A program made the translations under genes and the position numbers. From the NCBI GenBank assembly GCA_046318675.1, contig JBKCUA010000002.1, positions 14,191 to 78,190 of the forward strand: a stretch of DNA of 64,000 nucleotides, in the 5' to 3' direction. The notes below the pieces were generated by a model. That model saw nothing but the letters and a program-made list of their open reading frames with translations. It ran no database searches and was not told where the DNA came from. The first letter of the stretch is position 1. Each line of letters begins with the position of its first letter. Source of the stretch: Holosporales bacterium. GTDB lineage: Bacteria > Pseudomonadota > Alphaproteobacteria > JAJTHO01. Positions 3,283-47,854 of this stretch are shown in pieces.

Positions 3283-6200
3283 ATGGCTGCGCTCCCTGAG
3301 ATATCTATTCGTCGCCCGATTTTTGCTACGGTGTTAAATTTATTATTGGTCTTGGTTGGGCTGGTAGCAGGCACGCGCCTCGCAGTGAGGGAGTATCCTA
3401 ATATTGATTCGCCGGTGGTCACGGTGGACACTCGTTATGTTGGGGCTTCGGCGGAAGTAATGGAATCCCAGGTAACGAAGCCTCTTGAGGATGCTCTTTC
3501 TGGTATCGAAGGCATTGACTTTATTCGTGCTATTAATAGAGCTGAATCAAGCCAAATTACGGTACAATTTCGCCTCAGCCGCGATCCAGACGGCGCGGCC
3601 AACGATGTTCGTGATCGGGTTGCTCGTACCCGTGCTAGATTGCCTGATGATATTGATGATCCGGTGATTGCAAGGGTAGAGGCCGATGCCACCCCCATTA
3701 TGTGGGTCAATGTTAACAGTGATGTACATAGTGCCTTGGAAGTTTCTGAATATGCTGATTTAGTTGTGCAGGATCGCCTGCAGACCTTGGATGGAGTGGC
3801 TCAGGTACGGTTGTTTGCTGAGCGTCGTTATTCTATGCGAATTTGGCTCGATCGTGATCGGTTGGCGGCGTATCAGGTAACCCCAGGTGACGTGCAAAAT
3901 GCTCTTAATGAGCAAAATATTGAAATTCCAGCAGGACGAATTGAAGGTAAAAGCAGGGAGTTTACAGTTTTAGCTCAAACAGATTTGAACACCCCCGAAG
4001 ATTTTCAAAATATCATTTTGCGAAGCAGTGTTGATGGATCCATTGTGCGCCTAAAAGATGTCGCACAAGTTGTTTATGGTCCTGCTGATGAACGGCAGAT
4101 AGCCCGGTATAATAACCGTAATTCTATAGCACTGGGGATTGTTAAGCAATCAGTAGCCAACCCTCTGGATATTTCAGCACAGGTTCGTAAGGTATTGCCT
4201 GAAATTGAAAAATTACTTCCTCAAGGGATGCGGATCAATATCGCCTATGATTCGTCGGTGTTCATTCGCCAGTCAATCGCCAATGTATTTCATACGATTG
4301 TTGAGGCCACAGTGTTGGTAGTGTTGGTGACGTTTTTGTTTTTGCGTACGGTGCGGGCAACATTGGTGCCGCTGGTGGCTATCCCTGTTTCTTTGATTGG
4401 GGCGTTGATCCTGATGTATGTAGCGGGGTTTACAATTAATACCCTTACAATGTTATCCATGGTCATTGCCATTGGGTTGGTGGTGGATGATGCTATTGTT
4501 GTTTTAGAGAATAGTTACAGGCATCTAGAGCGTGGTCTTGATCCCTTACACGCGGCCATCAAAAGCATGAGGGAGATTTCTTTTGCGGTAATTGCCATGA
4601 CCTTGACGCTGGCGGCGGTGTTTGCGCCGATGGCGTTTTCCACGGGTAAGACCGGGCGGCTTTTTATTGAGTTTGCTTTAACATTGTCGGCAGCGGTGCT
4701 GATTTCTGGCTTTGTGGCTTTGACATTGACGCCCACTATGTGCGCTCGAATGCTCAGAGCCAAGGATTTACATAGCACTCATGGTTTTAGTAAACGGGTA
4801 GAGCTGTTTTTAAGGCATATAGAAGCCCACTATAAAAGCCGTCTTGGTTGGATTATGTCTAAAAAACCCTTGACGCTTATTGTTGCGGGTATATGTGCTG
4901 GCTTAGCAGTATTGCTATTTATTAGTTTGCCCCGGCAATTGACCCCGATTGAAGATCGCGGGGTGATTTTTTCGGTTACTATGGCACCGGAAGGCTCCAC
5001 TGTTTGGTATAGTGATACTTATTTACAGCAAGTAGAGCAAACACTTCAACATCAGCCTGAAGCCGCTTGGAATTTTACCGTAGTGGGTTTTCCAACAATT
5101 GTACAAGGCTATAGTGTTTTAGGTTTGAAAGATTGGGGCGAGAGATCCCGACATTCCACAGCTATTGTTGAAGCGATACGGCCTCGCTTGGCACAAGTAC
5201 CTGGGGTGCTGGCTTTTCCCATTAATCCTCCCTCACTTGGTCAAGGGGCGCGTTCTCTTCCTATTGAATTCGTAATACAAAGTAGCGGAAGTTATGAAGA
5301 TCTGGAAAAAGTTGCTAATACCTTGCTGGGCAAGATGCGGGAAAGTCCATTATTCCGCACGCCAGATAGTGACTTAAAACGTAATAAGCCCGAACTTAAA
5401 GTGAGCGTTGATCGGGAAAAAACAGCTGCTCTAGGGGTGACGGTGGCTGATATTGGCGCGACTCTTGGTACTGCGCTCAGTGGTACGCCCATCACTCGTT
5501 TTAAGCGCAACGGTGAGCAATACGATGTGATCGTCCAATTGGCGGATGATCGCCGCCGTACCCCGGATGATTTGACGGCTTTGTATGTTCGGGGTAGGGG
5601 TGATGCGATGATTCCTTTGCAAAACTTGGTACAAGTGCGTGAAGGTGTAACACCTAGGGAACTTAATCGTTTTAATAAGTTACGTGCCGTAACAATTACT
5701 GCTAGCCTAGCCCAGGGGGTAGGGATTGGTCAGGGATTGGACTTTCTGCGGCAGGCATTGGAAAAAATTGATTCTACGGTTATGTCCGATGTGGCGGGGC
5801 AAAGCCGGGAGTTTAAGGAGGCCAGTAGCAGCCTAGGCATAGTATTCACTTTAGCATTATTGTTTATTTATTTAGTGTTAGCAGCGCAGTTTGAAAGTTG
5901 GCGCGATCCGTTGATTATTCTGCTGGCTGTGCCGTTGGCATTGTTTGGGGCATTGCTGACAGTATGGATAACGGGTGGAAGTATTAATGTATACACGCAG
6001 ATAGGTCTAATTGCTTTAGTCGGCTTGATTGCCAAGAACGGCATTATGATTGTTGAATTTGCTAATCAGCTTCGCGATCGAGGACGCGATGCGGGGGCGG
6101 CAGTGGTTGAGGCGGCGGCCATTCGCTTGCGACCTATTTTGATGACCACGGCGGCCACGGTACTGGGGGCATTGCCGTTAGCACTGGCCAGCGGTGCCGG

Positions 6201-44166: not shown

Positions 44167-44172
44167 GGGGGG

Positions 44173-45063
44173 TCATCGCTTCTGAAACGCGCTTTCCATC
44201 ACGTTCAACACTCCCAAGATAACCTCCTTCACCCGCCGTTTGACGCTGGGCAGGGGGGTGAGGGCCTTGAGGGTAGGAAGCTCCAGGCACGGCAGGTGGG
44301 CGGCCTCGGGCAGGGCTTTGACAAACTGTTGGTGCAGCCAGCTCCCCTCCGGCGGGAGGATATTCTTCGGGATAGCCAAGCGGCGCAGGATTTCATTCCA
44401 TAAATGATAGGTATATGCACCTTGACAGAGCCTATCCATTTCTTCCGTTTTATCGGGATGCAACGCCAGCAGCGGTGCCAGATAACTGACAGGATAGAAC
44501 GCTTGCGGGGGTAGGGCAACACCCTGCATATTAAGGCGGGTGAGCACCCTTGTGAGCAGGCCGGGGCCAATATACGCCCATGGGAAATCGGTGCCGCTGG
44601 TGGCGAGTTCTTCTAAAAGGGTGTGCTGAAGGCTGGCATCGGGGATATGCAGCACCCCAACGCTGATAGTCTTTTTATCCTCACGACCACACACAATATT
44701 TTTGCCGCTAGCAAGGGCAGTAAAATCCCCTGCCGGGCGCAGGCAAATGACATCGGCATCAAGCCACCAGCCTGGCTCTTTGCTGAGCAGGGTAAATCGG
44801 AATGCATCGGAAAAAGCGGTTATATTGGCTTTCATGCCGCCTTGGGTGTACTTACCCAGATCGGATCGGGGGAGAATCTCCGCCGCGTCCCGGCGCACGA
44901 CCCCCGTGGGGACTTCCAGCGGATCAAAGCACCACAGATGCACAGTAAACCCTTTTTGAACAAAGGAGGCCATGCAGGCACGCTCATAAACAGACAGAGG
45001 GCGGCCATGCCAAAAGAAGTGGGCGGTTTCAGAATTGCTCATGATAGCAGGGTATTCCCTCAA
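44173..45063 (-). CDS. GT32-like (Gly_transf_sug / capsule-synthesis type) DXD glycosyltransferase
   Basis: N-terminal HFFWHG...LSVYERACMASFVQKGFTVHLW and central AFSDAFRFTLLSKEPGWWLDADV (DxD) match the glycosyltransferase sugar-binding DXD family. Host-like GC. Sits 7 bp upstream of rluC on the same strand. Start may be Met at 45040. Confidence 0.5.
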   Translation of the reverse strand: MREYPAIMSNSETAHFFWHGRPLSVYERACMASFVQKGFTVHLWCFDPLEVPTGVVRRDAAEILPRSDLGKYTQGGMKANITAFSDAFRFTLLSKEPGWWLDADVICLRPAGDFTALASGKNIVCGREDKKTISVGVLHIPDASLQHTLLEELATSGTDFPWAYIGPGLLTRVLTRLNMQGVALPPQAFYPVSYLAPLLALHPDKTEEMDRLCQGAYTYHLWNEILRRLAIPKNILPPEGSWLHQQFVKALPEAAHLPCLELPTLKALTPLPSVKRRVKEVILGVLNVMESAFQKR

Positions 45064-45174
45064 GGATGCTTTACCCTGTTTAAGTCAGAAGGGTGATGCT
45101 GGCAATGGGTAACGGTTCAGGCTGAACAAGGTAGTCTCAATGGCTTCACCCCCCTTTTTACTGGATACCAGCCG

Positions 45175-45235
45175 TGGCGGTCTGGCTGCTGGGGCGGGAG
45201 GGGTGCTGTACCAGTTTCATCAATACCCCCATGGC
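45175..45235. repeat. 61-bp perfect direct repeat, copy A (displaced 3'-end remnant of the FTR1 permease gene)
   Basis: Identical to 46661-46721. On the minus strand it encodes AMGVLMKLVQHPSRPSSQTA followed by a diverged tail TAGIQ* and G-run. Confidence 0.9.
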
Positions 45236-45269
45236 AGCATAATATTTTGCATTAATAAAAATAAAATAC

Positions 45270-45300
45270 TTGACGAATATATATATATATTAATCTAATA
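45270..45300 (+). promoter_or_regulatory. candidate sigma70-type promoter with a (TA)7 tract in the spacer
   Basis: TTGACG (45270-45275), (AT)7 at 45277-45290, then -10-like TAATCT/CTAATAAT about 70-85 bp upstream of the 421-aa ORF. Confidence 0.4.
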
Positions 45301-45368
45301 ATGGCGGTGGCTTGGACACGGATAATAATCGGCCTTGAACCACCTAACCACTGGCAACGAAGGTAACC

Positions 45369-46634
45369 ATGATAGGAGTAGGTATGACGGAAGAGATGCA
45401 GGTAACAGCAGCAGATAGGGCGCGGGCTAGTCAAGTACTGGCAGCATATGAAGCCTTCAAAAAACAGAAAGACGATTTGCCGGGACTTCTAGTAGATCGT
45501 ATAGAGCGGTGGGCTAAAAAAGTTGAAGGTGTTCTTGAAAGTGAAGGTGTTCTTGAAAAAAATGTGCACCCACAGCAGGTTAAAACGCTCGCCGCATTAC
45601 AAGAGGAAATTGTAGAAATAAATCTAGCAATGCAAGAAGGATGGCCTGACTTCAAAGGGTATGTAGGCTGTTCTTTATCAGCGAACGAAGGCAAAGAAGT
45701 TAAGAGTTTGTTCGAGATCGTAATGAATGGTGAAGCATTACCTGATAACCTCTTATTTAAGAGTATTGAAAAGGTTTTGGGTGCTGAACTTTTGGAAAAA
45801 CTAAATAAGTGCCAAAATGCAGATGATAAAGATAAAGCTTTGGATATTGTTATTTCTACACGTGTAAGGAAAGATTCTAAGAATATCCACCAGAATATCG
45901 ACCCAAGCAGCGATAGTCGTAAATACATAGATTATGTCACTCTTAGCCAAGCGTACGAAAAGGGAATAGAGGAAGTTTTGGAAAATCGCAGGCTTGTTAA
46001 AAATTTTTTCGAGGCTGGTGGTAGTGTCGATGCCGAACTTGTAAAACAGCTCAATACAACTATTATGCAACACAAATTGCGGGATATTTTTAACAAAGAC
46101 CCCCTTGTTCTTGATGAACAATCTTTCATAAGAGCGATTTTGCAGGAAAATCCTCAAGATTTCAAAGAACCGACAACCCAAGTATTCGATGGAATTGTTC
46201 GTGCTATCTGCAAGGCTAATGAGGCGGCGGTGCATGAATTGCGATGGCAATCTGAAGATAGAGCACGCTTTCCCGACCTATATCTGCCGCCGTACCCTAT
46301 CAAGATTGCAAGTATATTACGTGAGACGGATAAGGTCAAACAATGGGTAGACACTGGAGAGTTGATGCAGGAGCTTGGAACAAAACGTCGAATGATAGAT
46401 TTGCAAGCGGGTACCGTGAAGAGCTTTTCCGACCTATCGGATGTGCTTCAGGATGAAATCAACAGGATTATTGCACTCGACGATCCAGACTCGCGTGGGG
46501 CACAATCGTGTTATTTTCTACACCGGCTAACTTCTGGATATAGCAATGAATACGCAAAAGAGTTAGCGTCAAAGCGGCAACAATCCGCAACCTTAGCCGT
46601 ACAGGTCACCCAGCAACTTGGGAGAGAACGCTAA
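45369..46634 (+). CDS. hypothetical protein, low-GC orphan (no recognisable domain), cargo of the repeat-flanked insertion
   Basis: 421-aa ORF. The probable real start is ATG 45384, preceded by GGAG. AT-rich codon usage contrasts with neighbours. No signal peptide or TM segment. Acidic/helical composition. Confidence 0.55.
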   Translation: MIGVGMTEEMQVTAADRARASQVLAAYEAFKKQKDDLPGLLVDRIERWAKKVEGVLESEGVLEKNVHPQQVKTLAALQEEIVEINLAMQEGWPDFKGYVGCSLSANEGKEVKSLFEIVMNGEALPDNLLFKSIEKVLGAELLEKLNKCQNADDKDKALDIVISTRVRKDSKNIHQNIDPSSDSRKYIDYVTLSQAYEKGIEEVLENRRLVKNFFEAGGSVDAELVKQLNTTIMQHKLRDIFNKDPLVLDEQSFIRAILQENPQDFKEPTTQVFDGIVRAICKANEAAVHELRWQSEDRARFPDLYLPPYPIKIASILRETDKVKQWVDTGELMQELGTKRRMIDLQAGTVKSFSDLSDVLQDEINRIIALDDPDSRGAQSCYFLHRLTSGYSNEYAKELASKRQQSATLAVQVTQQLGRER

Positions 46635-46643
46635 TACCCCCCC

Positions 46644-47486
46644 TCACGAAACCCCCGCCTTGGCGGTCTGGCTGCTGGGGCGGGAGGGGTGCTGTACCAG
46701 TTTCATCAATACCCCCATGGCGATCAGGGTTGCGGCATAGACGGCGACCTGCATTCCCGTGGGCTGATCGGTATAGCCCATGAGGGCGTGCAGGGCTTTG
46801 CCGCCGTAGCTATCCTGCGCCACAATGCCGGAGCTGTCCCAAAGAATATCCGCCCATAATTCAATAACCCCTGCTTGGTGCAGGTACGCTACCGCCTGTC
46901 CGGCCATGCCGGCAGCCAACAGGGCGATAAGGACGCTGGTCACGGCAAACATCTGGCGGGTGGGAATGCGAATCAGGCCAAAGTACATGGTTGCGCTGAT
47001 AACAACCCCGCCCAGCAGGCCAATGCCCCCACCTAGCAGCATGGAAGCTATAGTATTGCCGCCCGATACCGCAATCCCGTATAAAAAGAGCACAATTTCG
47101 GAGCCTTCCCGCAACACCGCTACTGCCACCACAATCGCCAGTGCCGCCAAGGAGCGTCGCCCGTGGGCGACAGCCTCTCCCAGCACCCGCAGCTGTTGCG
47201 CCATATGCCGACCATGCTTGGCCATCCAGACATTATGCCACGTCAGCATCAGCACGGCGAGGATCAGAACACTGGCGTTGAACACTTCCTGTCCCACCCC
47301 GGCCATCAGGCCAGCCAGAGAGCTGGCAAACATCGCTACTACGCAGGCACCGGCAACACCGCCCGCAATCCCGTAACTGACCCAATGCCCTCGGTAAGGA
47401 ACACCGCGGGTGGCGGCCAGCACAATGCCAACAATGAGGCCGGCTTCGATGACTTCACGAAAAACAATGATGAGGGTGGCGAGCAT
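46644..47486 (-). CDS. high-affinity Fe2+ permease, FTR1 family (FtrC/EfeU-like)
   Basis: 7-TM profile with two RExxE iron-binding motifs (REVIEAG in TM1 and REGSEIV in TM4). Confidence 0.8.
   Translation of the reverse strand: MLATLIIVFREVIEAGLIVGIVLAATRGVPYRGHWVSYGIAGGVAGACVVAMFASSLAGLMAGVGQEVFNASVLILAVLMLTWHNVWMAKHGRHMAQQLRVLGEAVAHGRRSLAALAIVVAVAVLREGSEIVLFLYGIAVSGGNTIASMLLGGGIGLLGGVVISATMYFGLIRIPTRQMFAVTSVLIALLAAGMAGQAVAYLHQAGVIELWADILWDSSGIVAQDSYGGKALHALMGYTDQPTGMQVAVYAATLIAMGVLMKLVQHPSRPSSQTAKAGVS
46661..46721. repeat. 61-bp perfect direct repeat, copy B (functional 3' end of the FTR1 gene)
   Basis: Identical to 45175-45235. Encodes the last residues ...AMGVLMKLVQHPSRPSSQTA KAGVS* of the permease. 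Confidence 0.9.
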
Positions 47487-47521
47487 GGGGAAAGACTCCT
47501 GAGGGTGTCGGCGGTTGGTGA

Positions 47522-47854
47522 TTACTCGGCGATAATCACGCCTTGGGCGGTTTTTTCGTTGAACTCCCCCTTAAACGGGTAGGTGCCGGGTTTTAAAGCA
47601 CGAACGTGGAGGATGGCCTCGCCCTTGCCAGTGATGACTTTTTCAAGCTTGAGGGGATAGCTTTCAAATTCTTCGGGGGTGGGATCAAGGTTTTTGACCT
47701 TGAGAGTAAAAGCCTTGCCGGCGGGAACCTTGATTTCCGAGGGGGTGAAGCGGTGGTCGCTGATGCTCAGCTCATAAACTTTTTTATCTTCGGCAATTGC
47801 TGGTGCCGAAAACGCGGCCAAGGCCACAACGGCCAGAAAAAACAAGCGACGCAT
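47522..47854 (-). CDS. periplasmic cupredoxin-like domain protein (FtrB-like)
   Basis: Signal peptide MRRLFFLAVVALAAFSAPAIA, about 90-aa beta-sandwich cupredoxin-like profile (FTPSEIKVPAGKAFTLKVKNLD...GTYPF). Immediately upstream of FTR1. No obvious Cu ligands. Confidence 0.5.
   Translation of the reverse strand: MRRLFFLAVVALAAFSAPAIAEDKKVYELSISDHRFTPSEIKVPAGKAFTLKVKNLDPTPEEFESYPLKLEKVITGKGEAILHVRALKPGTYPFKGEFNEKTAQGVIIAE

Follow-up and report, generated by a model that had tools for sequence, protein, structure and literature searches.

In Escherichia coli, the e14 element and phage 21 integrate into the 3' end of icd and carry a slightly different replacement end for that gene. The gene is kept intact, while the end it had before persists as a pseudo-end across the element. 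These elements are 15-40 kb long, and a tyrosine integrase and an excisionase are among their own genes. In Streptococcus thermophilus, elements termed CIMEs (cis-mobilizable elements) are reportedly located at the fda 3' end. By definition, a CIME is bounded by attL and attR and is without integration or transfer genes (PMC5704250).

Holosporales are obligately host-associated (PMC11909080). A review of the group offers no account of mobile elements, the words "mobile genetic" being absent from its text (PMC11909080). The window analysed here, a stretch of 64,000 nt from a Holosporales bacterium (assembly GCA_046318675.1, contig JBKCUA010000002.1), carries an insertion at the 3' end of the gene for the iron permease FTR1. 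An earlier note on this DNA had described an ORF of 421 amino acids at 45369-46634 as an orphan acquired by the bacterium; the ORF is indeed present on the + strand. Its public record is MFN7901272.1 ("hypothetical protein ACK5O1_00335 [Holosporales bacterium]"), which adjoins FTR1 (MFN7901273.1) on a 118,859-nt MAG contig. Taken as a whole, the locus probably represents a one-gene element integrated at the FTR1 3' end; its cargo may, tentatively, be a moron-like accessory protein. The features of the locus are summarized in Table 1.

Table 1. Features of the insertion and its surroundings, in window coordinates.
Feature	Position	Strand	Remarks
Glycosyltransferase gene	44173..45063	-	Pfam Gb3_synth
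Displaced pseudo-3' end of FTR1 (attL side)	45158..45235	-	Encodes ...SSQTATAGIQ, then stop
Host arm with old stop codon TAA	45158-45174	-	Within the displaced FTR1 end
61-nt identical core, copy 1	45175..45235		Same as 46661-46721
Inserted DNA, 1,486 bp	45236..46721 (equivalently 45168-46653)		Absent from conspecific strains by blastn
AT-rich element arm and leader, 148 nt, 34.5% GC	45236..45383	+	TTGACG 45270-45275, (TA)7, GGAG 45375-45378
Orphan ORF	45384..46634	+	416 aa; the annotated ATG at 45369 gives 421 aa
Element arm beside core	46635..46660		9-nt spacer, plus final FTR1 codons and stop brought in by the element (46644-46660)
61-nt identical core, copy 2	46661..46721		Inside functional FTR1
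FTR1 iron permease gene, now chimeric	46644..47486	-	Pfam PF03239, E = 6e-34; end ...AKAGVS, then stop

Anatomy of the Insertion

The orphan ORF lies between two copies of a direct repeat (45168-45235 and 46654-46721; 68 nt, 2 mismatches, 97% identical), which is the sole repeat of such size in the 64 kb. No other frame between them is coding-like, and it fills 88% of the element, so that the description of a single gene as the cargo of a repeat-flanked segment, first made in the earlier note, stands. The right copy of the repeat is within the 3' end of FTR1, where the core matches codons about 255-275. Homology between the copies runs to the stop codon in both, the 26 terminal codons aligning at 70/78 nt, and the duplicated stretch amounts to 68-88 nt of gene end with a diverged arm. 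At the boundary of this arm, identity drops sharply from 61/61 to 9/17 nt; such an abrupt fall, from perfect to about 50%, indicates a recombination boundary and not gradual decay. When the FTR1 body is joined to the left copy, the product has 280 aa and the terminus ...SSQTATAGIQ; the present gene ends ...SSQTAKAGVS. No inverted repeats are found at the ends of the element, and no attC-like palindrome follows the ORF.

Empty and Occupied Sites

A search with FTR1 returned a 99%-identical protein (P0002) that ends exactly in ATAGIQ, which is the allele reconstructed from the left copy. It is encoded on two contigs, L019 (Logan SRR33769872) and L020 (SRR33769832), which share the gene order CysG, cupredoxin, FTR1, 116-nt gap, glycosyltransferase. 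By blastn, both contigs match the window at 49161-46654 and then from 45235 downward, with 68 nt common to the two pieces; they thus hold one repeat copy and lack the insert. A third FTR1 allele (P0122, ...HTAKAGIQ) is found on six further contigs from JGI and Logan samples. The insert is missing from all five of these with DNA (L022-L026), whose flanks share 97.5-99.1% identity with the window, and for the sixth, a 224-kb JGI contig (3300059473) represented by its gene table, the glycosyltransferase gene is placed directly after FTR1. The empty state therefore occurs in eight conspecific contigs, the seven with DNA holding a single repeat copy between flanks that are 97.5-99.8% identical. In the empty-site strains, as the gene tables of L020 and L022-L025 show, the glycosyltransferase gene follows FTR1 after 116 nt.

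An outgroup Holosporales MAG (GCA_046304995.1; L021), whose FTR1 is 80% identical, likewise has FTR1 followed by glycosyltransferase and RluC with no insert. A scan of GTDB genomes with FTR1 is uninformative for the empty site, its best match having 62% identity and no synteny. The comparison across strains that the earlier note had suggested thus finds the insertion absent from eight conspecific contigs and from the outgroup. Since both conspecifics and outgroup are empty, the ancestral state is the empty one, and the 1,486 bp in the window are an insertion.

Over about 1 kb, the FTR1 bodies of the window and L019 show 1 mismatch, and the displaced pseudo-end matches the functional empty-site allele exactly; the near-identity of the one and the unchanged state of the other indicate that the insertion occurred recently. 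The occupied arrangement is also found at 100% identity on an independent 9,743-nt JGI contig (L027, sample 3300057178), and in two Logan runs the element appears as 1,485-nt unitigs. The four available copies of the ORF and element are identical to one another, and the element is single-copy in the window and related loci. The insertion is real, recent and strain-specific.

Base Composition

The earlier note had based its view of a foreign gene on low GC content. Against the immediate neighbours this contrast holds: the orphan ORF has 42.6% GC (GC3 37.6%), compared with 55.8% for the glycosyltransferase, 59.3% for RluC, 60.1% for FTR1 and 64.9% for CysG. It does not hold across the window. 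The window has 48.6% GC, with a mean of 49.8% (sd 5.6) for its 45 genes, among which the ORF is the fifth lowest, at -1.3 sd for GC and -0.95 sd for GC3, and core genes of like composition are ribE (40.1%), ftsW (43.9%), ribBA (44.8%) and argS (45.8%). The divergence of its synonymous codons from those of the pooled window genes, 0.086, is ordinary and its codon usage host-like. By codon usage, which the earlier note had itself named as the check on its claim, the ORF is not compositionally atypical, so foreignness by composition fails. The GC outliers are the high-GC flanking genes and not the orphan ORF. A common shortcut is corrected here, in that a local contrast in GC reflects GC-rich neighbours and not a foreign low-GC gene. 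The case for acquisition rests on structure, that is, on the repeat and the empty site, and not on composition.

Intragenomic heterogeneity in GC is unusually strong in this genome and misleads the calling of islands by eye. Core genes of one 64-kb window span 40% (ribE) to 65% (cysG), and the gene-by-gene pattern is kept in the outgroup MAG.

The Orphan Gene and Its Product

The orphan ORF is a genuine protein-coding gene. Its open frame extends over 428 codons, whereas the longest frame obtained when the insert was shuffled 2000 times had 200. With a codon log-odds table drawn from 19 housekeeping genes of the window, it scores +0.185 bits/codon, compared with 0.185 for FTR1 and 0.197 for CysG, and the five remaining frames of the region all score negative. 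The GGAG sequence, reported earlier as its ribosome-binding site, does precede the second ATG (45384), at a distance of 5 nt, which gives a 416-aa product; the starts at 45369 and 45384 are each used by public gene callers. Within the ORF, at 45524-45558, there is a perfect tandem duplication of 17 nt (period 18 nt) that encodes the peptide repeat EGVLES-EGVLEK.

The protein is predicted to be soluble and all-alpha, with a mass of 47 kDa, a pI of 5.2, a net charge of -12 and a GRAVY of -0.50; its C-terminal 30 residues carry a net charge of only +2. It has no TM segment (maximum Kyte-Doolittle-19 score 0.61) and no hydrophobic stretch at the N-terminus. A simple motif scan detected no Walker A, HUH, HExxH, CxxC or MIX motif, and no nuclease, NTPase or HEPN-type motif is present beyond chance. 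The earlier statement that the protein is without TM segment, signal peptide, nucleotide-binding loop or assignable motif agrees with these values.

Its status as an orphan is likewise borne out, no homologue being found in any library searched. The protein matches itself only, both in a word-indexed search of 5.8 billion clusters and in an exhaustive phmmer search of 1.84 billion representatives. The matches that did appear were rejected. An NTF-like match in Pfam (13.4 bits against a cut-off of 27) is noise, and nothing else is found there at E <= 1; the best PHROGs match (E = 0.005) covers 24 residues of a family of unknown function; the best match among PDB sequences is sortase B at E = 0.36. 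No PADLOC family matches at E <= 1, and neither tblastn against phages and plasmids nor a scan of IMG/VR gives a match for the protein. AlphaFold2 models are all-helical and unusable, with pLDDT 43.8 for the whole protein and 39.1 for residues 204-416, and the best Foldseek match against PDB (E = 0.21, TM = 0.19) is meaningless. No paralogue is found by BLASTP against a neighbouring 1162-aa orphan or by tblastn against the window and all fetched loci.

On the + strand of the 148-nt leader, no sigma-70 consensus promoter is called. Folding of this 5' arm as RNA gives no significant structure (z = +0.36), and Rfam and tRNA scans give no match. The (TA)7 tract sits between TTGACG and TAATCT (45291-45296) at a spacing of 15 nt. 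Slippage by one TA unit would make a 17-nt spacer, and a phase-variable promoter could be possible; the region is the same in all four available copies. Downstream, the stop codon of the ORF (46632-46634, +) and that of FTR1 (46644-46646, -) are separated by 9 nt, and no terminator-like site is found in 44900-47000, as had been noted for this convergent gap before. The two genes converge so closely because the element's own replacement FTR1 end adjoins the stop codon of the ORF.

Mechanism and Class of Element

The element probably entered by recombination within the 61-nt stretch that is identical to the FTR1 3' end. The resulting attL consists of the host FTR1 tail, the core and the 148-nt AT-rich element arm. 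In attR, the core lies between the FTR1 body and the other element arm, which is made up of the stop codon of the ORF, 9 nt and a tail like that of FTR1. FTR1 thereby stays intact at 280 aa, with its tail changed from TAGIQ to KAGVS by the end that the element supplies. A RecA-mediated single crossover over the 61-nt core, instead of site-specific recombination, could also be envisaged.

The element arm mimics the FTR1 tail of its own species, with the pattern A-[T/K]-A-G-[I/V]-[Q/S]-stop and a run of G after the stop codon, and the FTR1 tails of other lineages are unrelated to it. Host-like codon usage together with this mimicry suggests a donor within the same lineage and not a distant low-GC donor. 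As far as these sequence features go, they point to an element that circulates within the Holosporales lineage of the window.

No integrase, transposase, relaxase or phage gene is found in the element or among the about 45 genes of the window. The window genes are all housekeeping genes, namely secY, adk, acrB, sucD, ahcY, rpoN, bamD, mrdA, rodA, thrS, glmU and trmD, and further dnaJ, NAD-GDH, yhdP, asmA, rluC, cysG, the mraZ-murE dcw cluster, argS, ribE and ribBA. An exact search for a parent element with either arm gave zero matches in JGI metagenome contigs and IMG/VR, a collection evidently without the source sample. The element may be what is left of a larger island or prophage after decay, or it may be non-autonomous and moved by an integrase encoded elsewhere; both would be CIME-like. 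The locus displays three features of a CIME, namely target-derived direct repeats, a single-copy empty site in relatives and no integration or transfer genes.

Other classes of element were considered and rejected. An autonomous tyrosine- or serine-recombinase element would carry its own integrase, and here there is none, no Pfam recombinase is matched at E <= 1 and the protein is acidic. An insertion sequence or transposon does not fit a locus with no transposase domain, no terminal inverted repeats and a duplication of 68-88 nt. For an integron cassette there is no attC-type palindrome and no IntI in the window; for integration of the Xer/dif type the core shows no resemblance, by eye, to a dif site. 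A one-gene element of the IS110 kind is discounted by the lack of DEDD and Tnp domains and by the fact that the element is not multicopy.

Possible Roles of the Orphan Protein and Alternative Readings

In a bacterium that is obligately host-associated, the orphan protein would be an accessory one, acidic, soluble and all-helical. A possible, though tentative, role is that of a moron-like accessory protein, i.e. a strain-variable factor in host interaction or competition that is perhaps exported by a T6SS. Apart from Holospora, nearly every sequenced genome of the group has a conserved T6SS, and the review reports no experimental data on T6SS secreted molecules in Holosporales (PMC11909080). 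The protein has no signal, MIX-type motif, marker or eukaryote-like domain of a secreted effector, and the 64-kb window holds no secretion-system genes (vgrG/hcp/PAAR, T4SS).

The ORF could instead be a functionless passenger of a decayed island or prophage and be on its way to being lost, which appears rather unlikely. The element has no mobility gene, is seen in few samples and shows no consensus promoter or terminator, and the ORF has no homologues, all as expected of a passenger; against this, the frame of 416 codons is intact, its coding statistics are like those of housekeeping genes and it has a GGAG site. Because the insertion is very recent, the intact frame is weak evidence either way.

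Cargo for defence or toxicity is common on integrated elements, and a lone, strain-variable accessory gene on such an element is compatible with an anti-phage, abortive-infection or toxin-type function. This reading is nevertheless improbable, since the protein matches no PADLOC family at E <= 1 and shows nuclease, NTPase or HEPN-type motifs no more than chance would give, and the 1.5 kb of the element hold no second gene that could form an immunity or antitoxin pair with it; the lack of a partner and of a PADLOC match argues weakly against such roles. In an obligately eukaryote-associated lineage (PMC11909080), lower phage pressure would also be expected.

The 1,486-bp unit might also be an active minimal element, its protein being a new recombination or mobility protein that targets and repairs the FTR1 end, and exact att-type boundaries around a single ORF over 88% of the element would make for a self-sufficient architecture. 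DNA recombinases and Rep proteins are typically basic. The acidic charge of the orphan protein (pI 5.2, net charge -12) argues against a recombinase or replication protein, no recombinase, transposase or Rep match is found at E <= 1 and no HUH motif is present, only one copy exists in the window and related loci, and relatives, which would be expected for a self-mobile element, are absent among 15 billion proteins; this reading is very improbable.

Equally far-fetched is an assembly artefact in which a free 1,486-bp circle sharing its core with FTR1 was threaded into the chromosome: the Logan data (k=31) do give a separate 1,485-nt unitig that ends inside the repeat, and a circle plus an empty site yields the same graph whenever k < 61, but with k reaching 127, JGI assemblies bridge the 61-nt core, two assemblies (the 118,859-nt MAG contig and the 9,743-nt JGI contig) agree on the integrated arrangement, and the occupied samples yielded no FTR1 allele of the empty-site type.

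Neighbouring Variable Loci

Three strain-variable loci lie within about 10 kb of core genome. Between mraZ and cysG, a 1162-aa ORF (49174-52662, - strand, 39.8% GC) is hypervariable within the species. In the same slot, contig L022 (4479-8297) carries a 1272-aa ORF with no nucleotide similarity and 28% amino acid identity over 1163 residues, in flanks that are 97.6-98.3% identical to the window, and the version in L019 (3-905) has 25% identity over 130 aa. Close to the C-terminus, the variants retain a hydrophobic motif, WGxxFGxFGW. The 1162-aa ORF has no Pfam, PHROG or PADLOC match, and a word-indexed search returns only itself. It may be of greater interest than the orphan ORF.

Between the glycosyltransferase and RluC genes, L023 carries a 1,642-bp insertion (4066-5707, corresponding to window 44171-44178) with a gene for a 328-aa NAD-dependent epimerase. 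Some conspecific strains have this insertion; the window, L025 and the outgroup lack it. No direct repeats were found on its flanks, which indicates a mechanism different from that of the insertion at FTR1.

The FTR1 permease (46644-47854 for the pair with cupredoxin) has Betaproteobacteria, including Gallionella, Rhodocyclaceae and Ca. Symbiobacter, for many of its named top matches outside Holosporales, at 64-67% identity. These matches and the high GC content suggest that the FTR1-cupredoxin pair was itself acquired anciently.

Comparison with Known Systems

If the reading of an integrated one-gene element at the FTR1 3' end is true, the element is among the smallest att-bounded integrated elements described, consisting of one gene and a gene-end mimic, and it documents gene flow by att-type recombination in an obligate protist-symbiont lineage. 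The clean natural presence/absence polymorphism within one species makes it a tractable candidate for studying the function of strain-variable genes in symbionts. The kind of element is a known one, integrase-less and att-flanked, and its cargo is an orphan gene.

Prophage morons and orphan effectors of intracellular bacteria resemble the orphan gene in several respects. They too are self-contained, strain-variable accessory genes that lie close to an att site and are preceded by AT-rich DNA, and have hydrophilic products without homologues in an obligately host-associated group; the present locus differs in having no prophage context, secretion signal or adjacent secretion-system gene. Integron cassettes also comprise about 1-1.5 kb with one ORF and a recombination site and rely on an external recombinase, whereas here the recombination site is a copy of the host gene end, with no attC, and no integron platform lies in the window.

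The e14 element and phage 21 in icd share the replacement-end anatomy, although the element at FTR1 encodes neither integrase nor excisionase. CIMEs differ in that the present element is only 1.5 kb long with one gene, belongs to Holosporales and not to Firmicutes, and has no related ICE/IME or integrase found with it, its mobilisation being putative. The likeness to CIMEs lies in the attL and attR repeats, the lack of mobility genes, the insertion into the 3' end of a protein-coding gene and the empty site in relatives.
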